In this document: one piece after another, positions 2,343 to 41,991 of the stretch
How positions within the stretch are numbered: position 1 is the stretch's first letter
How the letters are laid out: each line of letters opens with the position of its first letter
IMG/VR virus record: IMGVR_UViG_3300045988_086160
Origin: a virus
DNA: 41,991 bases
Direction: 5' to 3' (one strand)
Notes under the pieces: model-generated
Told to the model about the DNA's origin: nothing
What the model saw: only the letters and a program-made list of their open reading frames with translations
The model's database searches: none
Program-made: the position numbers and the translations under genes

Positions 2343-2822
2343 ATGCCTATTGAATGTACCACTGTCGGCATGAAATTCGCTTATTGCGTTGAGACTACCG
2401 CAGGTACCAGACCCACCACAGGCTTTACCGTGCTTAACGGCATTGTGTCTGTAGGCGCAATCACTATAACTCAGAATCCTTTGCAGGTGGTTCTTCCTGC
2501 CGAAAAGAAATATCGCTACCTTAAGGGCAAGGACGATATAAGCGGCGAGGTTGACGTTGTTATGTACAACGAGGATTCATACCTGAAAGGCTGGGAAACC
2601 ATGCGCACCGCCGCTGAAACCGCAAGAGCAAGCGGAAAAAGCACATGGTTTGTATTTCTGCCCGACGGCAACCACAAAGCGTTTGCGTTCACCGCTTCGC
2701 CCGGCGTTCTCGGCTCAGGCGGTCTGTCCGACAACATGATTTACGAAGTCAACACTTCGCTGACCGTTGAAGACGTGGGCGGCTATGTCGAAAAGCCCAC
2801 AGTTAAAGCTAATTCCGACTAA
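2343..2822 (+). CDS. Major tail (tube) protein
   Basis: 159 aa, directly upstream of the chaperone pair and tape measure. Size and position are typical of a siphovirus tube protein. Confidence 0.65.
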   Translation: MPIECTTVGMKFAYCVETTAGTRPTTGFTVLNGIVSVGAITITQNPLQVVLPAEKKYRYLKGKDDISGEVDVVMYNEDSYLKGWETMRTAAETARASGKSTWFVFLPDGNHKAFAFTASPGVLGSGGLSDNMIYEVNTSLTVEDVGGYVEKPTVKANSD

Positions 2823-2838
2823 TCCGAGGTAATACAAC

Positions 2839-3192
2839 ATGGAAAACAAGACTAATCTTCCCAAAACTCTGTCCTTCACCTTTGAAGGCAGGGATTATAC
2901 GCTTGAGTTTACCGCTCGCACTTGCGAAGTCGCATACACCAAGTATGACCTTCGCATTGAAGACGGTGCTTCCGCTATTTTCAGGCTTCCCACACTGTTT
3001 AAGTGCGCATTGCTGAAAAACCATGCGGACATTTCGAATGCACTCGTTGAGCGTATGCTTGACGCACTCGGCAACAAAGCCGAACTTGCGGGCAAACTTG
3101 CTGAAATGTATCTTGCGCCCGCAATGTCGCTTGTTGAGGAAAGCAAGGACGAAGAAGAGGGAAACGGAATCAGCTGGAACGCAAGTTTCTAA
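2839..3192 (+). CDS. Tail assembly chaperone (gpG-like)
   Basis: 117 aa, acidic C-terminus, between the major tail and tape measure genes. Contains a slippery heptamer near its 3' end. Confidence 0.75.
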   Translation: MENKTNLPKTLSFTFEGRDYTLEFTARTCEVAYTKYDLRIEDGASAIFRLPTLFKCALLKNHADISNALVERMLDALGNKAELAGKLAEMYLAPAMSLVEESKDEEEGNGISWNASF

Positions 3193-3638
3193 GTTTTTCC
3201 GAATCTGACACAGACGGGGGTGAAAAAACCGTCCCATGGAACATACAACTTGTTCGTGAAACTTTTCCGTATCTTCTCTCTATCGGAATGACGGCGGAGC
3301 AGTACTGGGATGGCGATTTTACCCTCGTTTTATCATATTTGGAAGGACATAAGCTTGCACTCCAGCGTAAATACGAAAATGACAACTGGAACGCATGGCT
3401 GCAAGGTCGGTACACCTATGAGGCACTGGGTGTTGCGCTGTCAGGAATCTTCTCCAAGCATAGCAGCGCAAAATATCCCGACAAACCTTATGAAATGCAA
3501 AACGATGAACGCAAAGAAAAACGCAAGCCCAAGCCTAAAGATAAAACCGAGTTTTACAAAAGCTGGGATGAACTTGCAGAGCAATACGAAGGAAAGGAGG
3601 ACATGTCTTGTCTGTATCGATTGATGAACTTATCATAG
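2839..3638 (+). CDS. Tail assembly chaperone fusion (gpGT-like), made by a -1 frameshift at 3159-3165
   Basis: The -1 frame ORF (3138-3638, listed in the track from ATG 3288) overlaps the 3' end of gpG and ends inside the tape-measure start region. No RBS precedes ATG 3288. Confidence 0.65.
3159..3165 (+). other. Programmed -1 frameshift slippery heptamer G GGA AAC
   Basis: GGGAAAC is in X XXY YYZ phase with the gpG frame. I traced the -1 frame codon by codon and it is open from 3138 to 3638. Same type of site as the lambda G/GT GGGAAAG. Confidence 0.7.
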
Positions 3639-10200: not shown

Positions 10201-11106
10201 ATGCACACAATACAGGTATCTGTTCGTGACAAAATTGCGACACAAACCGATGGCACTGTTATAATCAACGGCAACAGCGATTATAACATCGAATTTGACT
10301 TCGATGCCGAATGGGCGGACTTAAACAACAAAGTCGGAATATTTGCCTACAACGATGCTGCGGCGCATAAGTGGGCATATCAAACCGTGATGTTTAGCGG
10401 TAACACCTGCCCCGTGCCGATACTGCGGGATATACACTGCGTATACGTCGGCGTAACGGCGGGCAACGTGAGAGTTACTACCCCCGCAAAAGTGCCGTGC
10501 AGGCTCAGCATATCCGACTATGCGGACACAGAAGAACCGCCCTCCGCTGATGTTTGGGGACAAATCCTTGCAAAGTTGGACGAATTGCAGACAGAAATTG
10601 ACGAAATTAAGGAAGGCGAAGTGTGGGAAAAGATATGCCAAGTTACGACAAGCGAAAACGTATCTTTCGTGTATCAGCCTTTCAGCGGGAACTACAAGAA
10701 AATCCGTGCGATTTTTTTGGGGGAAACCACTGCCGCATGTCAGGTATGGATATACCCTAATACGAAAACCGTGCCGGGAGGTCGCGACATCGCGTATATA
10801 TTTAACGCACCATTTGCTAATGCTGGGAAATATACGATTGTTGGTGAATTTAACTCGTCTCCATACCCTGCGCCTAACAGCTCTGATAACTGTTATCGCG
10901 GACGATGCTCCATTGCCAGAGAGTGGAAACCTCAATGCCTCCATGCCGGATGGGGTGACAGTCTTTTTGATAATTATGTAAACGACTTTTATGCACACCT
11001 CGGAGAAGGCGACCTCGCACAGGGCATAAAAAGTCTTTACTGGACGCACAGCACAGGAGAGATAAAAGCAGGTGCTAAAATGGTTGTTTATGGGGTAAAA
11101 GCATGA
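10201..11106 (+). CDS. Tail fibre-associated structural protein (hypothetical)
   Basis: 301 aa with an AGGAGG RBS, in the distal tail block. Confidence 0.4.
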   Translation: MHTIQVSVRDKIATQTDGTVIINGNSDYNIEFDFDAEWADLNNKVGIFAYNDAAAHKWAYQTVMFSGNTCPVPILRDIHCVYVGVTAGNVRVTTPAKVPCRLSISDYADTEEPPSADVWGQILAKLDELQTEIDEIKEGEVWEKICQVTTSENVSFVYQPFSGNYKKIRAIFLGETTAACQVWIYPNTKTVPGGRDIAYIFNAPFANAGKYTIVGEFNSSPYPAPNSSDNCYRGRCSIAREWKPQCLHAGWGDSLFDNYVNDFYAHLGEGDLAQGIKSLYWTHSTGEIKAGAKMVVYGVKA

Positions 11107-18792: not shown

Positions 18793-19494
18793 ATGATTAG
18801 AAATTGGCTTGAAAAAAAGTTAAAACTGTCCGATGAAGAAATCCGTGCATATGCGTGGATTTTAAAAGAGACTGACGGCGGCGAAAGACCGCTGCAAACA
18901 ACGATGCAAGAATTTAAACAGGCAACGTACCAAACAAAAACGTTTGCCGGTGAGTTACTCAAAGCCCTCGCAACAAAAGGCTGTATCGCGTATAAGCGGG
19001 TTGAGATTTGCAAGGATAGTATGCTGTTCATTCAAGTTGCGGAGTTCGGCAAGCCCCCGCATGAGCTTTGCAATGAAACCCCACCGCTTGCCCCGCCGCC
19101 GACACCTATCGACTACCGAGACTTGATTACGGAGGAAGCAGACCCCGAAGAAGAAAAACGGGAAACCCTCCGACAGGCGATTATAGAGCTTGACAACGAA
19201 AAAGACATCATTATTGAGCCGTGGATGCTCAAATTTAGACTTAAGCCGCTTGCCCTGCTGTACTACGCATACGCTTACAGCAACCGCAGCAGCGAAGACC
19301 GCTGGTATGAAAAAATTACCGACACTTGCCAGAAATTTGAGGTAAAAGAGGCTACCTTGGCACTCGCCAGAAACGCCCTGACGGAAAGAGGGCTGTTCGT
19401 GCGTGAAATCCCGCAACGGAGGGCAAGTACCGCATACCCCTACATAATCAAAACAGAAATGCTTAAAAATTTCAATAATACGGAGGAAAACTAA
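18793..19494 (+). CDS. Replication-module winged-helix protein (hypothetical)
   Basis: AAGGAGG RBS before ATG 18793. 233 aa. Upstream partner of the DnaD-like gene. Confidence 0.55.
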   Translation: MIRNWLEKKLKLSDEEIRAYAWILKETDGGERPLQTTMQEFKQATYQTKTFAGELLKALATKGCIAYKRVEICKDSMLFIQVAEFGKPPHELCNETPPLAPPPTPIDYRDLITEEADPEEEKRETLRQAIIELDNEKDIIIEPWMLKFRLKPLALLYYAYAYSNRSSEDRWYEKITDTCQKFEVKEATLALARNALTERGLFVREIPQRRASTAYPYIIKTEMLKNFNNTEEN

Positions 19495-19495
19495 C

Positions 19496-20566
<1,071 letters not shown>

Positions 20567-22416: not shown

Positions 22417-22975
22417 GACATGGCAGCCTGTAAAGCGTTTTCCAGATTACGAAGTTTCGAACCTTGGACGTTTTCGGAAAAAGGCAACAGGAAAAGCGGT
22501 AAAGGTGTATAAAGGCTGGTATGTACACCTTATGCGCAACGGCATCCTCTACGCACGGAGTGCAGCAAAGCTGGTTGCGCAAGTTTACGTTCCGAACCCC
22601 GACCCGAAAAACAAAAAACGGGTTGAAAGATACAACCGCAAGTTTACAGACATTCGGGCGGAAAACTTGTATTGGGCAAACTGGGCGGAGCGGGACTGCC
22701 CGGACGAAGACAACCCGATTAAGCAGGCGCAAAAAAAAATTATTGATAAAAAATACGCCGTTATAGGTACATCACTTAAAGACGGACACGAAATCCGCTT
22801 TGAGAGCTGTCAGGCGGCGGGTAGGGCAGGATTCAGCTTCAGGTGCGTCTCCCGATGCTGCCGAGGTGAAAGCAAAACACACAAAGGTTACACATGGAGA
22901 AAGGCGGAGAAAGATAATGACACAGATTCTCGACAGCGGCAACCGTACGGAGTTTCAAACGGGGGCAGTCCGTGA
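22409..22975 (+). CDS. NUMOD4 / HNH_3-like protein with degenerate catalytic residues (paralogue 2)
   Basis: WQPVKRFPDYEVSNLGRFR, VAQVYVPNPDPKNKKRVERYNRKFTDIRAENLYW, KGYTWRK. Same architecture as the upstream gene. The 3' end overlaps the next gene by 59 nt, so the true stop context is uncertain. Confidence 0.6.
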   Translation: MVETWQPVKRFPDYEVSNLGRFRKKATGKAVKVYKGWYVHLMRNGILYARSAAKLVAQVYVPNPDPKNKKRVERYNRKFTDIRAENLYWANWAERDCPDEDNPIKQAQKKIIDKKYAVIGTSLKDGHEIRFESCQAAGRAGFSFRCVSRCCRGESKTHKGYTWRKAEKDNDTDSRQRQPYGVSNGGSP

Positions 22976-23453
22976 CATTCAGCAGGGTAAAGGGCGGTTT
23001 GATTTAATGCCGCTGGACATTATGAGCAAAGTGTTTGAGGTTGAGTTTGCAGACGAATTTGAGGAAGGTAGCATTGCGTATGTGCTGAAATCTATAGCGG
23101 TTTTCCAGCAGACGGGCAACGAAGGCTGGCTGTGTATTGCGATAGCACATTACAGTCAGGCAGTGCATGTTTGCCTCCCAACGCTCATGCTTGACGTTGC
23201 GAAGCATTTCGAAAACGGGGCTTTGAAATACGGAGAACACAACTGGGAAAAAGGTATTCCTGTCAGCCGTTACATTGATTCGGCAGTCAGGCACTTGATG
23301 AAAGATTGCACTTGTGAAACGGACGAAGACCATGCCTCCGCATTTGTGTGGAATTGCATGTGCGCCGCATGGACGATGAAACATAAGCCCGAGATGGACG
23401 ATTACACGCAAAAATGCGACTATCTTGCCTGTAACTTGCCTATAACTTGCTAA
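22917..23453 (+). CDS. dATP/dGTP pyrophosphohydrolase-like protein (DUF5664-type N-terminus)
   Basis: N-terminus MTQILDSGNRTEFQTGAVRDIQQGKGRFDLMP matches the SG.R..F.TGA.RD...GKGR.DL.P signature as I remember it. Start chosen at the internal ATG. Confidence 0.55.
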   Translation: MTQILDSGNRTEFQTGAVRDIQQGKGRFDLMPLDIMSKVFEVEFADEFEEGSIAYVLKSIAVFQQTGNEGWLCIAIAHYSQAVHVCLPTLMLDVAKHFENGALKYGEHNWEKGIPVSRYIDSAVRHLMKDCTCETDEDHASAFVWNCMCAAWTMKHKPEMDDYTQKCDYLACNLPITC

Positions 23454-23486
23454 CAAAAATATATTTGTCGATGGGTGCAAAAACAC

Positions 23487-23515
23487 TTGACAAATATAAA
23501 AGGCAGGGGTATAAT
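23487..23515 (+). promoter_or_regulatory. Sigma-A type promoter, TTGACA-17-TATAAT
   Basis: -35 at 23487-23492 and -10 at 23510-23515. Confidence 0.7.
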
Positions 23516-23559
23516 ACTCTACGAAAAGCGTAGGAAGCGCAAACAAGGAGGATTTAAAA

Positions 23560-23766
23560 ATGATATATTTTTCAATCGAACGTCCTGTATCTATTGGGAC
23601 GTATCCGAAACCGCAAGGCAACCACGTTGACGCAATAGTCAACTTCGATGAACCGATATTTGTTGCCGAAATCGGCAGGTCTGCATGGGGGTACATCGAG
23701 TATGCGCACCCGTTGACAGCGGAGCAGGCGGCGGCATATGAGCTGATAAAAGGCAAGGAGGAATAG
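23560..23766 (+). CDS. Hypothetical protein
   Basis: 68 aa with an AAGGAGG RBS. Confidence 0.6.
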   Translation: MIYFSIERPVSIGTYPKPQGNHVDAIVNFDEPIFVAEIGRSAWGYIEYAHPLTAEQAAAYELIKGKEE

Positions 23767-23767
23767 A

Positions 23768-23896
23768 ATGAATTACTGGGCATTTTTTTGGGCAACAGCC
23801 CCTGTTGCCGCTTGCATGGTGCTAATCTTCGCAAGCAACTGGGTGGAAAAGACAGGGGAAACCCTGCTGGACTGGTGGAGGCGGCACCATGAGTGA
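23768..23896 (+). CDS. Small membrane protein (42 aa, not in the ORF track)
   Basis: Hand-translated as MNYWAFFWATAPVAACMVLIFASNWVEKTGETLLDWWRRHHE. GGAGG lies 6 nt upstream. Its stop overlaps the next ATG. Confidence 0.5.
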   Translation: MNYWAFFWATAPVAACMVLIFASNWVEKTGETLLDWWRRHHE

Positions 23897-25839: not shown

Positions 25840-26060
25840 AAAAAGTAGAGGATAGATACGGCGGATACAGCCGTGGGAATGCGGCTATCCTTGTCGGAAA
25901 CTTGCCCGGCAGAAAAAAACTGTCTCTGCTTGTCCGTGGAGATGACCCAGAAGACAATGCCGCTTGCATACTGTACAACGCCGCATATTTCAGAAGTGAT
26001 GAGGACGCCGAAAGGTTTTTGGAGGCATTGAGGATAGTGATAGGAGATGAAATAGAATGA
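25836..26060 (+). CDS. Hypothetical protein
   Basis: 74 aa. Start/stop overlaps on both sides. Confidence 0.5.
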   Translation: MKKVEDRYGGYSRGNAAILVGNLPGRKKLSLLVRGDDPEDNAACILYNAAYFRSDEDAERFLEALRIVIGDEIE

Positions 26061-26827
26061 ACGAAATTAAAGTGTTTAACAACGCAGAGTTTGGCAAAAT
26101 CCGAACCCTGAATAGAGACGGCGAACCGTGGTTTGTCGGCAAAGACGTGGCAACGGCATTGGGATACAAAGACAGCGTGAATGCGCTAAAATCCCATGTA
26201 TCCGAGGAAGATAAAGGTGGGTGGCGGATTGCCACCCAATACGGAGAACGTGAAGCGGTAATAATTAACGAATCAGGGCTTTACACTCTGATTTTATCAA
26301 GCAAGTTGGACAGTGCAAAACGGTTCAAACGCTGGGTTACGGCAGAGGTGCTTCCGTCAATCCGCAAGAGCGGCGGATACATAGCGGGGCAGGATAAGAT
26401 GAGCGACACGGAACTGCTTGCAAAGGCACTGTTGGTTGCGCAACGGCAAATCGAACAGCGCAATGCGCAGATTGCGGAAATGCAGCCTAAGGCACTCTTT
26501 GCGGACGCAGTAGCGGCATCCCACGCGTCAATCTTGATTGGTGAGCTTGCAAAGATACTAAAGCAAAACGGAGTTGACATCGGGCAAAACCGACTTTTCG
26601 AGACGCTCCGACAGCAGGGCTACTTGATACGGCGCAACGGCACTGATTACAACAGCCCGACACAAAAGGCGATGGAACTCGGCTTGTTTGAGGTAAAAGA
26701 ATCAACCGTTGGCAACCCTGACGGCTCGGTGCGTGTTACACGCACAACCAAAGTGACAGGCAAGGGACAGCAATATTTCATAAATAAGTTTTTGACGGGG
26801 AAGTGCAACAATGAACGCAGAGATTGA
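26057..26827 (+). CDS. Bro-N / KilAC-domain antirepressor-like protein
   Basis: N-terminus FNNAEFGKIRTLNRDGEPWFVGKDVATALGY is Bro-N. The C-terminal half ...LIGELAKILKQNGVDIGQNRLFETLRQQGYLIRR... is KilAC-like. Confidence 0.8.
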   Translation: MNEIKVFNNAEFGKIRTLNRDGEPWFVGKDVATALGYKDSVNALKSHVSEEDKGGWRIATQYGEREAVIINESGLYTLILSSKLDSAKRFKRWVTAEVLPSIRKSGGYIAGQDKMSDTELLAKALLVAQRQIEQRNAQIAEMQPKALFADAVAASHASILIGELAKILKQNGVDIGQNRLFETLRQQGYLIRRNGTDYNSPTQKAMELGLFEVKESTVGNPDGSVRVTRTTKVTGKGQQYFINKFLTGKCNNERRD

Positions 26828-27288: not shown

Positions 27289-27735
27289 ATGAAAAAGATT
27301 TACATCGAAAAAATCCGACAGGCAACCCGCTTTGGGCTGATTGATGAAGACGGACGCAAAACCCCTTGCGGGACATTGTGGTCAGACGCGCAGCGGGAGA
27401 CGTTTGAACGTCTGATGAACGGCGGGAACAACCTCGCCTTTATGGCGTGGGGCGGTGATGACGTAAAGAAATCCGCCTTATGGGCGAAGTGGACGGACGC
27501 TCGGGGGCAAGAGAAACTTTGTAAGCTTGGGACATTCGTGCAGAATGCGCCGATAAAAGAATTTGTGGAAACCGCAACCGAGGAAGCAAAAAGCAACCGA
27601 CACTGCGGAACATGCTCGCATTTTGAGTGTGTAAACCGCAAAGGGCAAATCAGCAGGCAGGGAATGGGCGTATGCACGCTCATAAACAGGGATAGGTACT
27701 GCCTTTTTAAATGCGGAGATTGGAGTATGAGATGA
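27289..27735 (+). CDS. Hypothetical protein with a C-terminal Cys cluster
   Basis: 148 aa with CGTCSHFEC...C...C. Its stop overlaps the next ATG (ATGA). Confidence 0.55.
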   Translation: MKKIYIEKIRQATRFGLIDEDGRKTPCGTLWSDAQRETFERLMNGGNNLAFMAWGGDDVKKSALWAKWTDARGQEKLCKLGTFVQNAPIKEFVETATEEAKSNRHCGTCSHFECVNRKGQISRQGMGVCTLINRDRYCLFKCGDWSMR

Positions 27736-28592
27736 ACGAACTGAAAGCAAAGGAAGCGCAGGCAATAAAAGTGCTGCGCACATTTGAACCCGAAGAAGGA
27801 TACGTTCTCGCCTACAGCGGCGGCAAGGACAGCGACTGCATAAAAATTCTTGCGCAGCTTGCAGGGGTTAAAATCGAGGCGGTGCATAATCTGACAACGG
27901 CAGACGCACCTGAGACTATGCAGTATATAAAGGCGCAACCCGATGTTCGCATCAGTTGGGCGAGGGACAAAAACGGAAACCACGTCACCATGTGGAATCT
28001 AATCGAGACCCACGGACTTCCGACACGAATCCACCGCTTTTGCTGCAACAAGTTGAAAGAGCAAGCGAATCAAGGACGCTTGCTCATAACAGGCGTACGC
28101 AAAGCTGAATCAGTTAATCGAAAACGGGACGGCGGACTTGTGAAAATAATGGGAAAGCCGAAAACGACGGAGAAGCTTGCCCAAGAGATGGGCGTTGAGT
28201 ACATCAAGCCCAGAGAAAATGGGCTTATCCTCAACGATGACAATGATGAATCCCGCCGCATGGTGGAGCAGTGCTATCGCACACGCAAAACCTTAGTTAA
28301 CCCGATTTTGGACTGGACGGACGAGGACGTGTGGGAATTTTTACGCCATTACGGTTGCGAGGGCAACCCGCTGTACAAATGCGGATACAGCCGTGTGGGC
28401 TGTATCGGCTGCCCGATGAAGGGCGGCAAAAAAAGGAAGGAAGAACTTGAGCAGCATCCGAAATATGCGCAAATGTACTTCCGCGCAACGGACAGGATGC
28501 TTAAACGCCGCATGGACGATGGAAAGGAACTTCCGCTTGCGTGGGGTGACGGCAAGCCCGAAACCGTGATGAAATGGTGGCTGGAAAATTGA
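27732..28592 (+). CDS. PAPS-reductase-family PP-loop protein
   Basis: PP-loop YSGGKDSD. C-terminal Cys motif CGYSRVGCIGCP. Start taken at ATG 27732, preceded by GGAG. Confidence 0.75.
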   Translation: MNELKAKEAQAIKVLRTFEPEEGYVLAYSGGKDSDCIKILAQLAGVKIEAVHNLTTADAPETMQYIKAQPDVRISWARDKNGNHVTMWNLIETHGLPTRIHRFCCNKLKEQANQGRLLITGVRKAESVNRKRDGGLVKIMGKPKTTEKLAQEMGVEYIKPRENGLILNDDNDESRRMVEQCYRTRKTLVNPILDWTDEDVWEFLRHYGCEGNPLYKCGYSRVGCIGCPMKGGKKRKEELEQHPKYAQMYFRATDRMLKRRMDDGKELPLAWGDGKPETVMKWWLEN

Positions 28593-28601
28593 GGTGGAAA
28601 C

Positions 28602-29219
28602 ATGAAAATAGTCAACGCAAGCTACAGAATCGAAACGCCGATTGACGGCGCAGAGATACTAAAGCGTATCGAAAAAGCAGGACGTACCTGCTATAAGTCG
28701 GAAGACCGCATAACGGCAGAATCGGCGGAGGCGTTTGTCCGAATGCTGATTGAGCGCGGGCATGAAAGCGTACTTGAGCATGCAAGCATCACCGTACGAT
28801 TTATCTGTGACCGTGGCGTTTCGCATGAGATTGTACGCCACCGCATAGCAAGCTACTCACAGGAGAGCCAACGATATGTACGCTATAACGGCGACATTGA
28901 GTTTATCAACTCTCATATGCCCAATGCAAAAGCGTACGAAGCGTGGCAAGAGTTATGCGAACGTGCCGAGGAAACGTATAAGGAACTGCTGTCGTACGGT
29001 GTGCAGCCGCAACAAGCCCGAGCCGTGTTGCCGAACAGCACGAAAACCGAAATTGTTATGACGGCGAACCTCCGTGAATGGCGGCATTTTTTGAAGCTGC
29101 GGACGGCGAAAGCGGCGCACCCGCAAATGCGTGAGCTGACAGTGCCGCTGCTGCACGAACTGCAACGGCGGATACCTGTCGTTTTTGACGATATGGTTAA
29201 TGCGGAGGAAGGAGTGTAA
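28602..29219 (+). CDS. thyX: Flavin-dependent thymidylate synthase ThyX
   Basis: ThyX signature RHRIASYSQESQRY (RHR..S....S.R). 205 aa. Confidence 0.9.
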   Translation: MKIVNASYRIETPIDGAEILKRIEKAGRTCYKSEDRITAESAEAFVRMLIERGHESVLEHASITVRFICDRGVSHEIVRHRIASYSQESQRYVRYNGDIEFINSHMPNAKAYEAWQELCERAEETYKELLSYGVQPQQARAVLPNSTKTEIVMTANLREWRHFLKLRTAKAAHPQMRELTVPLLHELQRRIPVVFDDMVNAEEGV

Positions 29220-29221
29220 CC

Positions 29222-29917
29222 ATGGGCAAGGTGCTGATAGCATGCGAAGAAAGCCAAGCCGTATGCAAGGCGTTTCGTGAGCGCGGGCATGAAGCGTACA
29301 GCTGCGACATACAAGTGCCTTCCGGCGGACACCCCGAATGGCACATACACGGAGACGCAATTGCGGCATTGCAGGGCGGCAAAATCGTGACCATGGACGG
29401 AGTGACGCACGATATAGGCAAGTGGGATTTGCTGATTGCACACCCGCCTTGCACATATCTGTCCAACGTTGCAACAAGGGCGTTCAGCTTGAGATGCACC
29501 CCCCCCGAAAAGGTCGTTGAGAGATGGCAGGCAAGGGCGCAAGCAGCAGTGTTTTTCATGTATTTCGCTTTAGCCGACATTCCGAAAATTGCCGTTGAGA
29601 ACCCTGTCGGGTTTATGAACTCGGCGTATCGCAAGCCGGACATGGTGATTCACCCGTATCAGTTTGCAACCGGCACGGACGATGCCGAAAACTATCACAA
29701 AAAACGGACTTGCTTATGGACAAAGGGATTGCCGGAACTGATACCGACAACAGACCTCCCCGAACCAAACCTCGCCGAAATATACGGCAGATACCCGAGC
29801 GGGAAAACCCCCTGTTGGGAGGACACTGTAAAAGGCAAGGACAGGGCAAAGCTCCGCTCAAAGACATTCCCGGGCATCGCCACCGCAATGGCGGAGCAAT
29901 GGGGCAGTTTGATTTGA
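29222..29917 (+). CDS. C5-cytosine-methyltransferase-like protein lacking a recognisable SAM motif I
   Basis: HPPCTYLS (motif IV-like) and AVENPVG (motif VI-like) are present. The N-terminus VLIACEESQAV sits where F.G.G is expected. Confidence 0.4.
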   Translation: MGKVLIACEESQAVCKAFRERGHEAYSCDIQVPSGGHPEWHIHGDAIAALQGGKIVTMDGVTHDIGKWDLLIAHPPCTYLSNVATRAFSLRCTPPEKVVERWQARAQAAVFFMYFALADIPKIAVENPVGFMNSAYRKPDMVIHPYQFATGTDDAENYHKKRTCLWTKGLPELIPTTDLPEPNLAEIYGRYPSGKTPCWEDTVKGKDRAKLRSKTFPGIATAMAEQWGSLI

Positions 29918-30547: not shown

Positions 30548-31297
30548 ATGCACTATCAAGGCGGCAAATACAGATTCATCAAACATATAACGCCGATAAT
30601 ACAGACGGAGATAGACAAACACCAGGCACGGCATTTTATATCGCCGTTTTGCGGAGCGTACAACATCGAGAGCGCAATCGTGCATACGGACAAACTCTGT
30701 AACGATAAGAATGCTTATACTATTCGAATGTGGCAAGAATTGCAGAACGGCAGGGAATTTCCGTCAACCGTCACGGAAGAGCAGTACAAGCATGTGCGTG
30801 ACCACAAAGACGAAGACCCCGCATTGACAGGATTCATCGGAGCGGGCTGTTCATATGCGGGAAAATGGTTTCACGGCTACGCAAGAGACAGGCGAGGGGC
30901 GAACTATGCGGACGCTGCAAAACGGGGCAATGAACGCATGATGAATGCAGGGCTGAAACACGCAGTATTTACGGCAGGGGACTACAAGGACGTTGAGATA
31001 CCGCCTGACACGGTAATGTATTGCGACCCTCCGTATGCAAACACGCGCGGATATGACGGCGCAAAGGGATTCGACTCCGCCGAATTTTGGGCATACATGG
31101 ACGAGCTTCTTGACAACACACCGAATTTGTCAATTTTCGTATCCGAAAAGACAGCACCAGCGGGATGGCGGGAAGTGTGGCAAAAAGAGTGTTTGCAGGA
31201 AGTCAACAAGAACCCAAAGAATACAGGCAGACGCAGGATAGAGCGACTGTTTTACAAGAGCAACAGAGAGGAACAAGATGGATACATCAAGGCTTGA
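30548..31297 (+). CDS. dam: D12-class N6-adenine DNA methyltransferase (Dam-like)
   Basis: N-terminal YQGGKYRFIKHI and catalytic YCDPPYANT (DPPY). Confidence 0.85.
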   Translation: MHYQGGKYRFIKHITPIIQTEIDKHQARHFISPFCGAYNIESAIVHTDKLCNDKNAYTIRMWQELQNGREFPSTVTEEQYKHVRDHKDEDPALTGFIGAGCSYAGKWFHGYARDRRGANYADAAKRGNERMMNAGLKHAVFTAGDYKDVEIPPDTVMYCDPPYANTRGYDGAKGFDSAEFWAYMDELLDNTPNLSIFVSEKTAPAGWREVWQKECLQEVNKNPKNTGRRRIERLFYKSNREEQDGYIKA

Positions 31298-33176: not shown

Positions 33177-33722
33177 ATGGAAGAAAAAAAGACAGCAACG
33201 AAGAACAGCAGCAGGAAGCAGTCAACAGCGGTATCAAAACCGAAGAACACGAAGGTTGCGACTCCGCAAAACGATGAATCAAGGGCAATGGTATCTCAGC
33301 TATTGTCCGAGGTTGCTGTTGCGGCACGGATGCCCAAGGTACGCAACGATGAAGAACTCGCTCTTAGGTTCGAACAGTATTTCGACTATTGCTCCGCTAA
33401 CGGTATCGTTCCCACCATCGAGGAAATGTACCTCTACACAGGCTACTCAATAGGCAGTGTAACCAATTGGCTTGAAGGTAAACATGGATTCAGTCAACAT
33501 ACAGCGTCTATTGTAAGAAGAGCAAGGGACTTTGTACAAGCTTCTGATGCTAAACTTGCAATTAGCGGTAAAATTGATAAAATACTGTACATATTCAGGG
33601 GGAAGAATTTTTATTCAATGACCGATTCTGTCAAAATTGTGGCAGAAATGCAACAAACTGAGGGCAAAAGTGTCAAAGAATTGCAAGAAATATACGCAAA
33701 GTCAATACCAATTGAGGAATAA
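33177..33722 (+). CDS. terS: Terminase small subunit
   Basis: 181 aa from ATG 33177 (the track start 33126 lies inside the promoter). ...YFDYCSANGIVPTIEEMYLYTGYSIGSVTNWLEG...ILYIFRGKNFYSMTD pattern is typical of small terminases. Confidence 0.7.
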   Translation: MEEKKTATKNSSRKQSTAVSKPKNTKVATPQNDESRAMVSQLLSEVAVAARMPKVRNDEELALRFEQYFDYCSANGIVPTIEEMYLYTGYSIGSVTNWLEGKHGFSQHTASIVRRARDFVQASDAKLAISGKIDKILYIFRGKNFYSMTDSVKIVAEMQQTEGKSVKELQEIYAKSIPIEE

Positions 33723-33753
33723 CGGGGCTACTTTAGGTCAATTTCGCACAAAA

Positions 33754-33769
33754 TGTTTCACGTGAAACA
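33754..33769. promoter_or_regulatory. parS site, perfect palindrome TGTTTCACGTGAAACA
   Basis: Exact fit to the conserved ParB/Spo0J site TGTTNCACGTGAAACA, in non-coding DNA. Confidence 0.75.
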
Positions 33770-33866
33770 CCATGGCGGGGACTATTGTGCTGTTTTGTAT
33801 ATTATAATGTGGCAAACTTGTGACAAAATGTGTCAGCGACTCTCTGGCGCAAATTCATATAAAAAA

Positions 33867-33882
33867 TGTTTCCCGTGAAACA
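33867..33882. promoter_or_regulatory. parS-like site TGTTTCCCGTGAAACA (15/16)
   Basis: One mismatch to the first site. Embedded in the same ~29-bp repeat. Confidence 0.65.
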
Positions 33883-34200
33883 TCATGGCGGAATCACTGT
33901 TTACAGTATAGCATACTACCGAATGTTTGCCAAGAGTTACCGAATATCAAAATTTAATGTTGTAGTAACAATGCAAGGCGAACATAAAAACGCGCTTGCG
34001 TTATAGCCTTAAACGCACATAACAGGCAACGCAACAGCGGAACAATGAACATGTACAGGTGTACAGCCGAATAATCAGCGGCAATATAGGCAATGCAAGC
34101 GGCACGAATGCAGTATTGCTATAGCCTTCAATCGGGACGGAAGCGGATTATTCCGCCATGATATTATACAGAAAAAGCATAGTATAATACAGCGGAGCAT

Positions 34201-34232
34201 AAAAAGCCCGCCGGAACATTGCATTCCGACGG
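34201..34232 (-). terminator. Intrinsic terminator of the minus-strand operon
   Basis: On the minus strand, CCGTCGGAA-tgcaatg-TTCCGGCGG (one mismatch) is followed by GCTTTTT. Lies 19 nt after the last stop codon. Confidence 0.6.
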
Positions 34233-34250
34233 TTAAAACGTGTAGCGGGT

Positions 34251-34667
34251 TTACCTTCCGCTGTCGTTCTCCGCTTGTCGCTGAAGTACCCGCAGCGTTT
34301 TAAGCAGGCGGTCACGGTTCAGCCGCTTGCTGTCAATTATTTCATCAATCAAATCTTGCAAGTCGTTCGCAATGCAAAACAGACTATCGGACAACGGCTC
34401 AACCTCCATTTCGAACGCTTCTTTTTCCTCGTAAATCAAATCAATCGTTTGCATAAGTCTTTTTGCCCAAAAAGCAAAGAACGCCGCTAAAGTTTCGTTG
34501 TTTGATTCTTTGAGGGCTTCCGAAACAAGCCCCGAGACTGAAACGCCTTTTTCTGCAAGTGCCTTCACGACGGAAGGGCAGCCGAAATAGTACGTTGACA
34601 GTTTGTCTTTGCAATGCAAGCCTTTTTCCCGTTTTTCGTATTTGCCGCAAAATTCTGCATATGTCAT
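34251..34667 (-). CDS. Hypothetical protein (island gene 4)
   Basis: 138 aa. Its GGAGG RBS lies inside the end of the upstream gene. Helical, with an acidic centre. No family recognised. Confidence 0.65.
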   Translation of the reverse strand: MTYAEFCGKYEKREKGLHCKDKLSTYYFGCPSVVKALAEKGVSVSGLVSEALKESNNETLAAFFAFWAKRLMQTIDLIYEEKEAFEMEVEPLSDSLFCIANDLQDLIDEIIDSKRLNRDRLLKTLRVLQRQAENDSGR

Positions 34668-34670
34668 TTT

Positions 34671-35063
34671 TTAATCCTCCCTGCTATCGGTGAACACGGG
34701 CTGCACAACGGCTTGCGTTCTGTCGGTGTTTAATGCATATATCACAAGCCGCCGCCGTCTTTCGGCGGCATCGCAGTTCCGGAGTTCGATTCTGACCGTC
34801 CCGCTAAAAAGTGGAAGCAACGCCTTAAGGGTTTCAACGTCAATATCGATGGTCTCAATTGCGCCTCCGCACGGCATGTATGAGTAAACATCCGATGCCG
34901 TGCATACTGAGTTTTCGTCTTCCGGCACATACGCAACGCCGAAACGACTGTACAGCGTTAACCCGTTGCTGTCGGCATACAAGCTTCCGCTGTCGTTTCC
35001 GTCAACCTTGTTTAATTGCTTGCGTATTTTTTGCATTTTTTCGAAAGTCTTCCCATTAATCAT
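34671..35063 (-). CDS. Hypothetical protein (island gene 3)
   Basis: 130 aa from ATG 35063, preceded by GGAGAAGGAG. The track start at 35108 is upstream of the RBS. Confidence 0.6.
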   Translation of the reverse strand: MINGKTFEKMQKIRKQLNKVDGNDSGSLYADSNGLTLYSRFGVAYVPEDENSVCTASDVYSYMPCGGAIETIDIDVETLKALLPLFSGTVRIELRNCDAAERRRRLVIYALNTDRTQAVVQPVFTDSRED

Positions 35064-35168
35064 TTTTTTCTCCTTCTCCCCCGTATAGCCAGATAGGACA
35101 GCTTGCAATTTATTTTTTAATCAACAGCGGCAATGCCGCAAGTACCAGCAGGAAAAGCACGAAAGTCA

Positions 35169-35393
35169 TTAATACCACCTCAGCCTTTTCAAAACGCCGT
35201 AGTACGCGCGGATTCCGTACACGTTGTTATAGCACCCGAGCTTTTTATCGAAGACGTACGGAAAAACTTGCTTTTGCTCCGTGCCGCTGTCATTTTGCCA
35301 GACTCCGTTGCATATCCTGCCGTCTTCAACTCGGAAGCTCAGATTCTCGTTTTTTTTGTGCCAGCCGTCGATGTATGTTGTTCTTTTACTCAT
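35169..35393 (-). CDS. Hypothetical small protein (island gene 2)
   Basis: 74 aa with an AAGGAGG RBS. Rich in Trp, Tyr and Gly. Confidence 0.55.
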   Translation of the reverse strand: MSKRTTYIDGWHKKNENLSFRVEDGRICNGVWQNDSGTEQKQVFPYVFDKKLGCYNNVYGIRAYYGVLKRLRWY

Positions 35394-35411
35394 TGTCTTC
35401 TTCCTCCTTCG

Positions 35412-36290
35412 TTAAGACAGCCTGTAGATATAGTACGTTTCGTCATATGACGTGACTTCATGTTCCTCGCCGTCATATGACGAAATGAAATGCCCGCGTC
35501 CGTCGGCTGCAATTGCGTCTTCGACGAACTCATTCAAATCGTCAATCAACGCTTGGATAATTGCGTTCGCGCCTTCGCAAAGTCTTTTTTGTACAGCCCG
35601 AATCGCAAGCCGTAAATCATTCAAATCGACGGGGTCGTCACAATACACAATGTCGTGTTTTAAGTGTTCAGCTATGAACTCGGGGTTGAATGCCCACAAT
35701 TCGGCTTTGATTATCTGGTATGCAAGCGCATATGCCCGCTCGTCTTCAAGCACATAAAACTCTTCGCCGCAAGCTTCATACCGATACTCGCTGTAGGGGC
35801 TGCTGAAATAGCGGGCAACCGTGACTGATTTCATATCGTCTTCGGTGTAGCCGTCGCGTTGGGCTATGAATTTTTTCAAGGCAACCTCTTCCGGGTAGCT
35901 TTTTTCAGTGAGCGTTTGCTCATTGTCTTCGTCCTCCTTCTCATCGAGTATCTTTTGAACTTTGTCGTTTCCCAGACTGTCTTCCTCCGACAGGATATAG
36001 TCGGCAATGTCTTCAGCAAATATCGGCAATTCCCACGCGCCGTACGAATCAAGATTACCGTATCCGTCGGTGCCCCAGAAGTCTTTCATGAAGTCAAAGT
36101 CGCCAGACCGAATCATGCGTACAAGTTCCCATTTTTCGACGCCGTCGAGCACTTCTTCAAGCTCGTCCATGTCGTATATATAGTCGTCCGCGCAGTTAGC
36201 GGCAGCGCAATAAGCATTATGCAATGCAATTTTATCGTCGATGCCCATGCCGTTGATATAATCAACGAGTTTCTTTTTCATTTCGTTCAT
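35412..36290 (-). CDS. Very acidic hypothetical protein (island gene 1; possible DNA mimic)
   Basis: 292 aa. My hand count gives about 69 Asp/Glu versus about 27 Lys/Arg. The C-terminus GRGHFISSYDGEEHEV..YYIYRLS faintly resembles ArdA-type proteins. Confidence 0.65.
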   Translation of the reverse strand: MNEMKKKLVDYINGMGIDDKIALHNAYCAAANCADDYIYDMDELEEVLDGVEKWELVRMIRSGDFDFMKDFWGTDGYGNLDSYGAWELPIFAEDIADYILSEEDSLGNDKVQKILDEKEDEDNEQTLTEKSYPEEVALKKFIAQRDGYTEDDMKSVTVARYFSSPYSEYRYEACGEEFYVLEDERAYALAYQIIKAELWAFNPEFIAEHLKHDIVYCDDPVDLNDLRLAIRAVQKRLCEGANAIIQALIDDLNEFVEDAIAADGRGHFISSYDGEEHEVTSYDETYYIYRLS

Positions 36291-36339
36291 TTTGTTGTTC
36301 CTTCCTGGTTTCGGGTTTTCCTTCCCTTTTGATAGTTAC

Positions 36340-36368
36340 AGTATACCAGATACGGCGGCGCATTGCAA
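36340..36368 (-). promoter_or_regulatory. Promoter of the minus-strand operon, TTGCAA-17-TATACT
   Basis: Read on the minus strand: -35 at 36363-36368 and -10 at 36340-36345, with an exact 17-nt spacer, about 45 nt upstream of ATG 36290. Confidence 0.55.
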
Positions 36369-36539
36369 GCATTTTTTGAAAATATACAACGAGCAGCAGA
36401 TAGTATAATCCCTTTACTTTATTAGGTTTTTTCTATTGCAGATTGAAGCAGGAGGATATATCTTTAAAATTGTTTGGTATATTTTGAGTGCGTATTATGA
36501 TATTGTATTGTTATGATTCAGTTAACATGAAATATATTT

Positions 36540-37010
36540 TGCGTGCAATTGTGACAGCTCCGGAGGCTGCACAATGCGATAGCTGTATATCATAGCCTAT
36601 GTTACAATGCCCGATATAATTATGGTACTGCATTTTATCGTATGCCGTCTGCGTACCGTGCCTTGCTATGCTTTACACTCCGCCATGCTTATTTATTGTA
36701 TGAGTACATAAATGCTTGTTTTACGCTGTTTTTGCTTCCCTGCTTTGCTGTCGGCGTACGTGCTGTCGTTCCGCCATGTACTATGTAAAATATTAATAGC
36801 GTAACATTGCTATGCGGTATTATGCAGTGTATGCAGCTTGCCTTGCTTGAGTATGCGATACTATGCAAGATTATAATTGCTGTTTATTTGCTGCTGCTAT
36901 TGCATTGTGTGCGGGCTATTGCGTGCATATTGCTATTGCTTTGTGGTTGTTTATTGTGTGTGTTGTCGGTATTGTGCTATGAAATAATGACAGAGAGTAA
37001 GCCCCACGGT
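36540..37010 (+). repeat. T/G-rich non-coding tract of degenerate short repeats
   Basis: Recurrent GCCTTGC, CTATTGC, TATGC and TGCTATTGC units. Contains two CCGCCATG boxes (36680-36687, 36771-36778). No RBS-supported ORF. Confidence 0.7.
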
Positions 37011-37076
37011 GGGGGATATGCGGTATGAGTGCAGAAACAACTTTACCCCTCTGACCACATTTCAACAAAAAGACCC

Positions 37077-37105
37077 TTTCTTCAAACACTGTTTCATGAT
37101 ATAAT
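37077..37105 (+). promoter_or_regulatory. Possible extended -10 promoter for terL (TGaTATAAT)
   Basis: TGATATAAT at 37097-37105. The -35 region is weak (TTTCTT). Confidence 0.35.
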
Positions 37106-37130
37106 AAATACATACCATAGGAGGCACAGT

Positions 37131-38807
37131 ATGGACATAGCAAAGCTAATTTTCGAACGCATAGAAGAAGACCCGACCAATGCTGAGGCATGTAACGATT
37201 TAATCGACTGGTGCATTGCAGAAGCCGCCGCAAAGCCGAAAAAGACGCATTATTACAGTGCTGAGCTTAGGAAAGTGCTTTCAAAGCAACTGCGCAATAA
37301 GTGTGAAGGTGACGTTGAGCAATTATTCAACGCATACAGACGGAGCTTGTTGTTTGATGCACCTGATTCATTTGACGCATATTTGCTGTATTTAGAGATA
37401 GACAGACCGCCAGCAGAACGATTCTATCAGCCCAGAAGAAAACGGCTCAAAGAGGTTGTAGACGCATTGCAGGCACTCACAGACAACGAGCTTGATGAGC
37501 TGTTCATCAGTATGCCGCCAAGAGTGGGCAAGAGTACAATACTTTTGTTTTATGTTACTTGGCTGATTGGCAGAAATGATGAGCGGTCGAATTTGTATAG
37601 TGCATATTCAAGCACGATAACGCAAGCGTTTTATAACGGCATATTGGAGGTACTCACCGACCCTATCACATACCGATGGGCTGACGTGTTCCCGAATGAG
37701 CGGATAGCGAAAACGAATGCGCAGGAAACGACAATTGATTTAGGGCGCAAGAAGCGTTATGCCAGCCTTACATGCAGGTCATTGTACGGAACGCTTAACG
37801 GTGCGTGTGACTGCAACGGTGTAGTTATATCGGATGACCTTATCGGCGGCATAGAAGAGGCACTGAACCGTGACAGGCTTGTTTCGGCATGGAGCAAAGT
37901 CGATAACAATTTGTTACCGAGAGCGAAAGAAACGGCGAAAGTGTTGTGGTGCGGTACACGTTGGAGCATGATTGACCCTGCGGGACTTAGGATGGAGCTG
38001 TTGATGAACAGCGACCAATACAAAAAACGTCGGTTTAAGATAATAAACATTCCCGCACTCGATGAGAACGATGAATCCAACTTTTACTATGATTACGATG
38101 TGGGATTCAGTACGGAGTATTACCGCCAGAGACGTGCTTCATTCGAACGCAACAACGATATGGCATCATGGGTTGCGCAGTACATGGGCGAACCTATAGA
38201 GCGTGAAGGCACGGTATTCAATCCTGAGGATATGCGGTACTACAACGGCGAACTTCCGGAAGGCGAGCCTGATAGGGTGTTCCTTGCGTGTGACCCGTCA
38301 TTCGGCGGCGGCGACTATTGTGCCGCTCCCGTGTGCTACCAGTACGGTGAAGACATTTACGTTCACGATGTTGTGTACGATAACGGCGATAAGCGCATAA
38401 CCCAACCCCTGCTTGCAAGAGCGATAATTGACAACAACGTCAGGACGGCGCAATTTGAAGCCACAAAGGCTACTGAGACGTACAGAGACGGCGTACAAGA
38501 GCTTTTAAAGCAAAAGGGGTACAGAATATCGATAACGACAAAAGCCGCTCCTACACGCACTACAAACGGCGTGAGCGCAATGAAGGAACAGCGCATACTC
38601 GATAAAGCACCTGAAATCCGTGAACGGATGATATTCCGTGAAGAGGGGAAACGCACAAAACCGTATTCGTTGTTCATGCAGAATGTATTCTCGTTCAAAT
38701 TCATGGGCAAGAACAAGCATGATGACGCTCCCGACAGCCTTGTTATGGCAATGAACATGGTGACAGGCAGACGGCAGAGGGCTGATATATTCCAGCGACC
38801 GTTCTAA
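37131..38807 (+). CDS. terL: Terminase large subunit
   Basis: AGGAGG RBS before ATG 37131 (the track start is 37029). Walker A SMPPRVGKST. C-terminal nuclease-type acidic motifs. 558 aa. Confidence 0.9.
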   Translation: MDIAKLIFERIEEDPTNAEACNDLIDWCIAEAAAKPKKTHYYSAELRKVLSKQLRNKCEGDVEQLFNAYRRSLLFDAPDSFDAYLLYLEIDRPPAERFYQPRRKRLKEVVDALQALTDNELDELFISMPPRVGKSTILLFYVTWLIGRNDERSNLYSAYSSTITQAFYNGILEVLTDPITYRWADVFPNERIAKTNAQETTIDLGRKKRYASLTCRSLYGTLNGACDCNGVVISDDLIGGIEEALNRDRLVSAWSKVDNNLLPRAKETAKVLWCGTRWSMIDPAGLRMELLMNSDQYKKRRFKIINIPALDENDESNFYYDYDVGFSTEYYRQRRASFERNNDMASWVAQYMGEPIEREGTVFNPEDMRYYNGELPEGEPDRVFLACDPSFGGGDYCAAPVCYQYGEDIYVHDVVYDNGDKRITQPLLARAIIDNNVRTAQFEATKATETYRDGVQELLKQKGYRISITTKAAPTRTTNGVSAMKEQRILDKAPEIRERMIFREEGKRTKPYSLFMQNVFSFKFMGKNKHDDAPDSLVMAMNMVTGRRQRADIFQRPF

Positions 38808-41580: not shown

Positions 41581-41991
41581 ATGGCAGATACTTTTGCTAC
41601 AAGTTTTGCGGTGCTTAACTATAGCGGTATGCTTTTCAATAAAGGCAATACCCGCACACCGCTTTCATCTATCATAGGCTCTCGTGCAAAAACTACCAAC
41701 CATGTAGAATTTGTCACTGGACAGAGCTATACTTCCGGCGGCGGCACTCAGCCTGCAATTTCCGAAACAGCCTCCCTTACCGCACCTGATGCTACTGTCG
41801 TTACCCGCACTCAGCAGACTAACGTCACTCAGATTTTCCAGGAAACTATCGGTATTTCGTACGCCAAACAGTCTAACATGGGAACGCTCAGTGGCGTAAA
41901 CATTCAGAATCAGAGTGCAAACCCGCTTAACGAACTCGATTTTCAGGTTGCGGCAAGAATGCAGAAAATTGCGGCGGATATTGAAGCAACC
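41581..41991 (+). CDS. Major capsid protein, N-terminal part (no stop in the window; continues at 120-722)
   Basis: AGGAG RBS before ATG 41581. 137 codons are open to the window end (MADTFATSFAVLNYSGMLFNKGNTRTP...). In frame with ORF 6-722 via the overlap. Confidence 0.8.
   Translation, partial: MADTFATSFAVLNYSGMLFNKGNTRTPLSSIIGSRAKTTNHVEFVTGQSYTSGGGTQPAISETASLTAPDATVVTRTQQTNVTQIFQETIGISYAKQSNMGTLSGVNIQNQSANPLNELDFQVAARMQKIAADIEAT
41873..41991. repeat. Terminal direct repeat copy 2 (identical to 1-119)
   Basis: See copy 1. Confidence 0.9.

Follow-up and report, generated by a model that had tools for sequence, protein, structure and literature searches.

A variable island of small minus-strand genes between the terminase genes of a phage genome, with a possible role in host takeover or counter-defence

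We analysed the viral DNA record IMGVR_UViG_3300045988_086160, a stretch of 41,991 nt referred to below as the window, with attention to a cassette of minus-strand genes located between its two terminase genes, terS and terL. The window is a whole phage genome in circular assembly: its two ends overlap exactly over 119 bp (1-119 and 41873-41991), leaving 41,872 bp net. An earlier sequence-only reading had described the cassette as an autonomous antisense four-gene operon of unknown function. Its measurements hold, in that terS and terL are 3.4 kb apart (33722 to 37131) and the interval contains minus-strand open reading frames (ORFs) of 292, 74, 130 and 138 aa. The count of four genes had to be revised: there are five with the micro-gene pep19, and the 292-aa product corresponds to two genes fused by a 14-nt insertion. 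The features of the locus, from promoter to terminator and then in the flanks, are as follows.

36340-36368, minus strand: promoter P1, TTGCAA-17-TATACT with TG before the -10 box (extended -10), from a promoter scan
35412-36290, minus strand: gene A (ORF), 292 aa, isoelectric point (pI) 4.18
35169-35393, minus strand: gene B (ORF), 74 aa, basic (pI 9.5), with a GGAGG ribosome-binding site (RBS)
35110-35169, minus strand: pep19, a 19-aa hydrophobic peptide, MTFVLFLLVLAALPLLIKK, whose ATG overlaps the stop codon of gene B (TAATG)
35070-35108, minus strand: junction element TTGCAA GCTGTCCTATCTGGCTATAC GGGGGAGAAGGAG, putative 5′ untranslated region (5′UTR) and RBS of the next gene
34671-35063, minus strand: gene C (ORF), 130 aa from ATG (145 aa from an upstream TTG), pI 5.0
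34251-34667, minus strand: gene D (ORF), 138 aa, pI 5.2, starting 4 nt past the stop codon of gene C, with its RBS within gene C
34198-34232, minus strand: intrinsic-terminator-like hairpin with a T run, end of the island
33177-33722 (or from 33126), plus strand: probable small terminase gene terS, left flank, 181-198 aa
33723-34197: conserved non-coding left frame of the island, with two 29-nt units that contain the palindrome TTTCACGTGAAA
36369-37130: conserved non-coding right frame of about 760 bp upstream of terL, about 91% identical in relatives
37131-38807, plus strand: large terminase gene terL, right flank, matching phrog_38 at 5e-59

The promoter and the terminator that had been proposed were both recovered by scanning. 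The terminator consists of an 11-pair stem (34232-34208) followed by GCTTTTTATG, with a folding energy of about -16 kcal/mol. Promoter-like sites occur in the window at chance density (14 found, 9.3 ± 3.3 expected); P1 is nevertheless credible because 10 of 11 same-species variants hold a promoter matching 9/12 to 12/12 consensus positions at the equivalent place. A GGAGG-type RBS had been ascribed to every ORF, which is correct for gene B and incorrect for gene A, where the site reads GGAAGG.

The island genes are, as had been proposed, the only credible minus-strand genes of the genome. AT skew is positive in all 1-kb windows except those at 34-37 kb, strand skews flip over the island, and the other long minus-strand ORFs tested (23004-23834, 2809-3237, 18955-19596, 27300-27983 and 28913-29542) yielded no match in a PHROG search. 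The first of these, also the longest, was rejected as a gene, being a shadow of the plus-strand MazG-like gene which it overlaps. Compared with homologues in relatives, island genes have ratios of non-synonymous to synonymous differences (pN/pS) of 0.15-0.61 and are therefore regarded as real. Scans of the region for Rfam families and tRNAs gave no match, and DNA of positions 33700-37200 had no similarity match among 50,697 GenBank phage records.

We then compared the terS-terL interval across related phages. About 200 loci were assembled by searching terL against IMG/VR, GTDB genomes and metagenome contigs and by adding contigs that encode homologues. Among the 107 loci having both genes, the distance between them is 1.6-5.8 kb in 105 (median 3.5 kb), and the genes are adjacent (37 bp) only in L189 and L191, the most distant loci, whose terL is 53% identical. 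The interval therefore appears to be a long-standing, clade-wide hotspot and not a conserved junction recently interrupted. Minus-strand ORFs follow terS in most relatives, and the gap is never empty within the clade. The earlier proposal of a cassette inserted in an otherwise conserved junction is not supported by this comparison, which found the interval nearly always occupied and its cargo variable; nor is the base composition unusual, the GC fraction of the island being 0.46-0.48 against about 0.48 genome-wide, with only the non-coding flanks lower (0.40-0.41). Relatives were found in metagenome-assembled genomes of Ruminococcus, Oscillospiraceae and Acutalibacteraceae, and some lie inside contigs of 100-530 kb and are therefore prophages.

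Within the window the assignment of terS is weak (GP3_package at 5e-4, phrog_606 at 4e-4). Relatives encode, upstream of their terL, a terS-like protein of greater distance (about 22-25% identity by tblastn) that matches GP3_package at 5e-16, and gene calling on the relative L001 gives a 181-aa gene at the terS position. The identification of the upstream 181-198-aa protein as terS is weak but plausible. Location between the two terminase genes could mean that the island encodes proteins that assist packaging, for example an HNH endonuclease or cofactors of the terminase. Position is the one argument for this; A-D contain no HNH, nuclease or packaging domain, and the unit is on the opposite strand, has its own predicted promoter and is not conserved where the terminases are near-identical. 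We regard the probability of a packaging role as close to negligible.

The variability of the cargo is best seen in the same-species set, defined as 11 islands whose terL protein is at least 97.5% identical (97.5-100% among these genomes), each with a cargo of 2-6 minus-strand genes. Their gene orders from promoter to terminator are listed below, where A_N (35916-36290, phrog_4534) and A_C (35412-35909, phrog_15770) are the two modules of gene A, both belonging to PHROGs of unknown function.

Window: A, B, pep19, C, D
L001 and L002: A_N, A_C, B, pep19
L003: A_N-like, 136 aa, 168 aa, pep19, C-like
L004 and L194: 68 aa, pep19, 138 aa, 175 aa, pep19
L005: A_C-like, B, pep19, 84 aa, 141 aa
L007: 178 aa, pep19, A_N-like, 139 aa, B-like, pep19, 141 aa
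L195 and L197: A_N with a different 55-aa tail, 176 aa
L198: A_N-like, 273 aa, pep19, 141 aa
L199: A_C-like, B, pep19

Around this cargo the frame is kept: blocks 33832-34240 (including the terminator) and 36570-37130 are 84-100% identical in the close relatives reaching them, whatever genes lie between. The site 5′ of the first gene matches the promoter consensus at 9/12 positions plus the extended -10 in the window, at 10/12 in L001 and L005 (the same site, with TATAAT) and at 11/12 in L199, and it is a perfect TTGACA-17-TATAAT (12/12) in L004, L194, L006, L007, L195 and L198. In L003 no promoter was found in the 130 nt examined, and another small ORF lies upstream there. The predicted promoters of ten variants fall into three unrelated sequence alleles. 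Since the match is kept or bettered at the same place, it is above chance, unlike a lone match in the window. This conservation of a predicted promoter is the strongest evidence for the autonomy of the island.

Relative to the window, L001 and L002 have a 710-bp deletion between the direct repeats CCGCTGTCGTT(C/T) at 34258-34269 and 34987-34998, which takes gene D and most of gene C and leaves about 27 C codons in L001. The deletion probably arose by recombination at the short repeat. The deleted, L001-like form was seen in 7 of the 18 contigs read that carry P0001, a gene of the nearest relative. The island is in this respect no coherent ‘system’, as had been suggested, since its genes do not travel together; no gene but pep19 is common to the same-species variants. 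Of the earlier moron interpretation, an autonomous, accessory unit of unknown function is retained, and a recent moron insertion carrying a fixed four-gene system is not.

Shared cargo genes differ by 0.2-0.7 per synonymous site (pS), against 97.5-100% terL protein identity in the same genomes, which suggests that they were exchanged with an external pool and did not diverge in situ. Gene B has only three close homologues in a collection of 5.8 billion proteins, with pN/pS of 0.15-0.18 against L005 and L199, and its domain forms the C-terminus of the 273-aa protein in L198. For gene C a collection of 1.84 billion proteins gave five matching representatives, of which two are convincing and one, a 1986-aa FN3-repeat protein, is weak; the gene shares 55% identity with its counterpart in L003 (pN/pS 0.44) and has no Pfam, PHROG or PDB match. 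Gene D, with four homologues in the 5.8 billion proteins, is missing from L001 and L002, and its C-terminal half is attached to a different N-terminal half in L005, L007 and L198. Judged from these arrangements, modules are swapped between phages both as whole genes and as domains. The earlier statement that no product can be assigned to a family was borne out: A-D have no Pfam, NCBIfam or PADLOC match, PHROGs gave families of unknown function only, and searches of the PDB by sequence and by profile with A_N, A_C, B, C and D found nothing credible. A literature search for the phrog numbers of the three PHROG families found no mention.

Such turnover, together with the domain shuffling, the common deletion variant, the gene fusion and the near lack of relatives of B, C and D anywhere, might mean that the ORFs are selfish or neutral passengers and the island a recombination sink for ORFan modules that bring the phage no benefit. 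We consider this unlikely, as all the genes including pep19 are under purifying selection, promoters at or near consensus are found in 10 of 11 variants, and the gap is never empty in the clade. The variability also bears on the possibility that the island is a lysogeny or immunity module, a repressor with partners; temperate phages usually transcribe such a module in the direction opposite to their lytic genes. The island is indeed the sole opposite-strand unit of the genome, its relatives include prophages and an antirepressor is encoded elsewhere in the window, but A-D have no helix-turn-helix or repressor domain, and the same-species variants have only pep19 in common, whereas an immunity module would keep its repressor. 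An immunity function is, in our estimate, most unlikely.

The coding element most widely common to the island variants is pep19, present in the window, L001-L007, L194, L198 and L199, with two copies each in L004, L194 and L007; it was not found in L195 and L197 or in the short contig L115. It is always coupled translationally to the gene upstream, whichever gene that is. The peptide is preserved even between copies that have as many as 19 of 57 nucleotides different, variable sites are distributed 10/3/15 over the three codon positions, and the pooled pN/pS of nine copies is 0.20; by these measures pep19 is under purifying selection. The peptide is hydrophobic with a basic tail (mean Kyte-Doolittle hydropathy 2.8 over residues 1-17), a composition that fits the pattern of type I toxin-like membrane peptides, which have a short hydrophobic helix and a basic tail. 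Gene calling missed pep19 on L001 and L002. A hairpin at 35139-35127 was considered as an internal terminator and rejected: it lies within the pep19 coding sequence, lacks a T run and is not preserved in the other copies.

Immediately after pep19 comes the near-invariant element TTGCAA GCTGTCCTATCTGGCTA(T/C)AC GGGGAGAAGG, and then a different gene in each genome. Read as a promoter it would be TTGCAA-15-TATACG, similar to P1 and with a spacer of 15 nt and a -10 box ending in G. The element is also found 3′ of the promoters in L004, L194 and L199, which themselves match the consensus at 12/12 or 11/12 positions. A form of 32-39 nt, GCTGTCCTATCTGGCTAYACGGGGAGAAGG, precedes different genes and recurs at 10857-10886 (minus strand) in L203, an unrelated 60-kb viral contig; the L203 copy stands between a 376-aa gene (DUF262-like, read by eye) and a 42-aa ORF. 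No RNA structure was detected in the element (z = +1.2). Because of the poor spacing and -10 box, the position 3′ of near-consensus promoters in L004, L194 and L199, the standalone copy in L203 and the absence of RNA structure, we read the element as a portable 5′UTR/RBS rather than a promoter. Of the stretches over which relatives resemble the window, several start or stop at 35060-35170, and we infer that the junction element is the likeliest recombination junction.

All 135 homologues found for gene A are 161-192 aa long and each spans one half only. A_N and A_C were treated separately, since a joint MAFFT alignment misaligned the hits, which form two non-overlapping halves. L001 and L002 encode the halves as separate genes, of 124 and 165 aa, that overlap, with a junction reading ...AATGAGTAA, and relative to these genomes a 14-nt insertion in the window (35903-35916, minus strand) together with a change of TAA to CAA brings A_N and A_C into one frame. 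By this comparison the 292-aa ORF is a genome-specific fusion of two neighbouring genes. The fused form is absent from the collection of 5.8 billion proteins.

The extreme acidity attributed to the first product was exact to the residue: gene A encodes 69 D/E against 27 K/R, with pI 4.18 and a net charge of -42. Its net charge per residue (-0.144) lies about 2.9 standard deviations from that of the 56 other phage ORFs (-0.002 ± 0.049), and the second most acidic ORF reaches -0.077, so that gene A is the most acidic in the phage. This charge, along with the wording of its C-terminus, had suggested that the first product faintly recalls ArdA-like proteins, and the cassette could on that account be an anti-restriction operon whose first product is an ArdA-family DNA-mimic anti-restriction protein. 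Its acidity approaches that of ArdA (-0.194 per residue, a comparison of composition that says nothing of surface pattern), and A_C, at about 165 aa, is ArdA-sized. The sole stretch of A_C that aligns with ArdA is the 12-residue DGRGHFISSYDG, which resembles DLSGTFISTNHG at the ArdA C-terminus. Every search for the family was negative: gene A has no PF07275 match at E <=1; hhalign against 2W82, to which the ArdA query sequence (Tn916) is identical, gave a probability of 0.6% for A_C over 12 aligned columns and 1.3% for A_N; neither module finds ArdA in a PDB profile search; and 2W82, with its three-domain elongated fold, is not among the 50 best PDB matches shown for the A_C model. Membership of gene A in the ArdA family is not supported, and an anti-restriction operon of this type is very unlikely. 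An acidic-decoy action of gene A, for which its composition is the argument, is possible.

The structural model of A_C is confident (predicted local distance difference test, pLDDT, 92.6; predicted template-modelling score, pTM, 0.85) and shows a mixed alpha/beta fold. With Foldseek its best match in the PDB had E 1.1, with template-modelling (TM) scores <=0.25 among the 50 best matches shown, and in BFVD it matched four uncharacterised phage proteins at TM 0.6-0.8 and E 1e-10 to 1e-13. The model of A_N is poor (pLDDT 63), and its Foldseek outcome carries no meaning. The conserved core of the A_C family comprises EE(F/Y)xVL, LWAF-N, LCExAN-IIQAL and DGxGH(F/Y)ISxYDGEEHE. A tblastn search of plasmids with gene A, made as a test for leading-region genes, returned a single match, on a Phormidium plasmid. 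Homologues of A_C are found mainly in Bacillus Herelleviridae. In Bacillus phage Thurquoise the homologue lies within the 8-kb terminal repeat, amid about 20 small hypothetical genes, and in Bc431v3 its neighbours are tiny transmembrane ORFs and small genes that are each annotated with a SigA promoter and a 39-bp repeat. This context suggests a host-takeover flavour for A_C.

In distant relatives the gap contains a minus-strand block (an FtsK/SpoIIIE ATPase and many unknowns) and a plus-strand block (a serine resolvase, Bro-N and others). The FtsK/SpoIIIE-type ATPase (249 aa, PF01580 at 3e-38, minus strand) adjoins terS in L008-L082 and L083-L113, and the small serine resolvase (about 220 aa, plus strand) occurs just upstream of terL, with 76 copies in 58 loci. 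The resolvase was considered as the mark of a prophage end in the gap and rejected, since L083, a contig of 534 kb, has the order D5-terS-island-terL unbroken. From the cargo of relatives, 30 further proteins were scanned in Pfam and 10, partly the same, in PHROGs. Families with names, found in distant relatives only, were the FtsK/SpoIIIE ATPase, serine resolvase, Bro-N, a tRNA_anti-like protein and GP3_package (terS itself).

Given the anatomy of the locus, its conserved frame, its mosaic cargo under purifying selection and the absence of known families among its products, we favour on balance, and by no wide measure, the view that the cassette is one allele of a hypervariable island of accessory genes that serve host takeover, counter-defence or competition between phages and are transcribed from a promoter of host type. 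The island fills the terS-terL junction across a lineage whose phages and prophages belong to gut Oscillospiraceae, Ruminococcus and Acutalibacteraceae. Its frame is made up of terS, a non-coding block of about 480 bp with the terminator, the cargo, a sigma-A/sigma-70 promoter, a second non-coding block of about 760 bp and terL, and between promoter and terminator a changing set of 2-6 small minus-strand genes is accommodated. A translationally coupled gene for a 19-aa membrane peptide, followed by a near-invariant 5′UTR/RBS, provides one recurrent junction. Use of the host RNA polymerase is probable, given promoters that equal or approach the host consensus; the unmodified enzyme would transcribe the island apart from the late operon, early in infection or constitutively. 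The targets of the products would then be the host or rival elements, in takeover, counter-defence or exclusion, and not the packaging process. The very acidic A would be the best candidate for a decoy or nucleic-acid-mimic inhibitor and, if so, would have a fold with no solved relative, other than that of ArdA. The suggestion of the sequence-only reading that these are candidate host-interaction or anti-defence genes appears a fair one, since the island behaves as accessory cargo, and the argument for it is one of context.

Several observations weigh against assigning the island to this functional class. The cargo of all variants has no match to known anti-defence, defence or takeover proteins in Pfam, NCBIfam, PADLOC, PHROGs or the PDB, so the functional class is drawn from genomic context. 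The timing of island transcription and the use of its promoters are read from the sequence. Acidity by itself makes no DNA mimic, and the fused form of gene A may be uncommon or may stem from an error of assembly. Finally, the FtsK/SpoIIIE ATPase and the resolvase in the gap of distant relatives point to other roles, in DNA handling or recombination, at least there.

The main rival is that the island holds prophage-expressed genes for defence or superinfection exclusion, morons in the strict sense, that shield the lysogen, with pep19 as a membrane exclusion factor or toxin. Relatives integrated in contigs of 100-530 kb fit this, as do promoters that lie at the host consensus and would be independent of the lytic programme, and the conservation of a hydrophobic peptide with a basic tail; variable islands of temperate phages often hold defence cargo (10.1101/2024.10.15.618418; PMC9122126). 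The evidence on the other side is that the cargo has no PADLOC match, that no integrase was found among the window genes scanned (part of the genes), that a same-species contig at 26,305x coverage and twice the genome length suggests lytic growth, and that A_C homologues reside in virulent Herelleviridae. The contig in question, L198 (ERZ19289528 NODE_299, 82,425 bp), probably reflects a bloom of this phage, assembled as a concatemer. Lysogen-protecting genes are, on this evidence, possible and distinctly less probable than an island of the takeover or counter-defence kind.

A more far-reaching version of the favoured interpretation would make the locus a cassette-exchange site of gut Clostridia phages, with pep19 and its 5′UTR as a portable swap junction and a cargo of new counter-defence or takeover effectors, headed by the A_N and A_C families for which no relative of solved structure was found, that includes a new-fold acidic decoy. 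We put this forward only tentatively and would not expect it to hold in full.

The non-coding frames have features of their own. In the left frame the 29-nt units AAAATGTTTCACGTGAAACACCATGGCGG occupy 33750-33778 and 33863-33891 (plus strand), just 3′ of terS. The 12-bp palindrome in them is perfect in copy 1, has one mismatch in copy 2 and is found nowhere else in the genome; L003 has a single copy of the unit. The units might serve as a pac site, as a binding site for terS or as an operator. The right frame is rich in T and G on its plus strand, where TATTG, ATTGT and TTGCT show 8-10 fold enrichment, includes a perfect TATAAT at 36404-36409 (plus strand) divergent from P1, and has no match in Rfam. 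Possible roles for this frame are those of a leader for the late genes or a site for packaging. Small ORFs in 36400-37130 were rejected as genes, since their differences from relatives are mostly amino-acid changes (judged by eye). Elsewhere in the window, accessory genes on the plus strand include a Bro-N/KilAC antirepressor (26057-26827), a PAPS-reductase-like gene (27711-28592), ThyX (28602-29219), a Dam-type methyltransferase (30548-31297) and a MazG-like pyrophosphohydrolase (22917-23453).

The human gut abounds in phages of Oscillospiraceae and Ruminococcaceae; these have barely been studied by experiment, and their accessory genes are dark matter. The locus described here is a compact hotspot with fixed flanks, promoter position and terminator, in which at least 12 unrelated families of small proteins rotate in near-identical genomes. 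Such hotspots have yielded new anti-defence and takeover proteins in other phages. The locus is unsurprising in kind and useful as an experimental shortlist, in which pep19 is a concrete micro-gene candidate.

We compared the island with several known systems. ArdA (PF07275; PDB 2W82) is likewise very acidic, small and located on mobile elements, and differs in that no sequence, profile or fold similarity is detectable.

Morons consist of a promoter, a gene and a terminator inserted between genes that are adjacent in relatives, and are found in lambdoid and other temperate phages. The island resembles them in its own promoter and terminator, for which there is sequence evidence, in its dispensability and in transcription predicted to be independent of the late genes. 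In contrast to morons, its gap is occupied in 105 of 107 relatives, its base composition is not foreign, and it is a multigene unit with internal shuffling.

In the hyperplastic regions of T4-type phages, PeSL elements combine a strong early promoter with a terminator stem-loop (PMC2839356, PMC4122927); among described systems they come nearest to the repeated regulatory elements by which ORFans are shuffled. These too are short conserved sequences between non-essential ORFans, situated at the breakpoints of insertion, deletion or replacement between close relatives. The repeat here differs in being a 19-aa micro-gene with a 5′UTR/RBS, in which the promoter-like part is poorly spaced and the hairpin not conserved, and both host and phage lineage are unrelated to T4.

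In SPO1, the region equivalent to those that hold A_C in Thurquoise and Bc431v3 is an early host-takeover module that includes the acidic DNA mimic Gp44, an RNA polymerase inhibitor (PMC8208478, PMC6873191). Small genes of unknown families behind sigma-A-type promoters and very acidic proteins are common to both, with the expression timing predicted in our case, and Bastille-like phages have members of the A_C family in their equivalent regions. On the other hand, the island belongs to a 42-kb genome with an SPP1-type portal (PF05133) and not to a myovirus of 130-170 kb, and no SPO1 takeover protein is homologous to A-D.

As a general category, the island falls under the variable islands or hotspots of phage genomes (iLund4u definition, 10.1101/2024.10.15.618418; P2 hotspots, PMC9122126). 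Compared with these, an inter-terminase position on the opposite strand and the cargo families found here were not found described, and no known defence or anti-defence gene labels the hotspot. The island, with its uncharacterised content and junction micro-gene, is a member of this known class, with which it shares variable cargo between core genes, here terS and terL, in many genomes, a cargo that is mostly unannotated, and a predicted transcription unit of its own.

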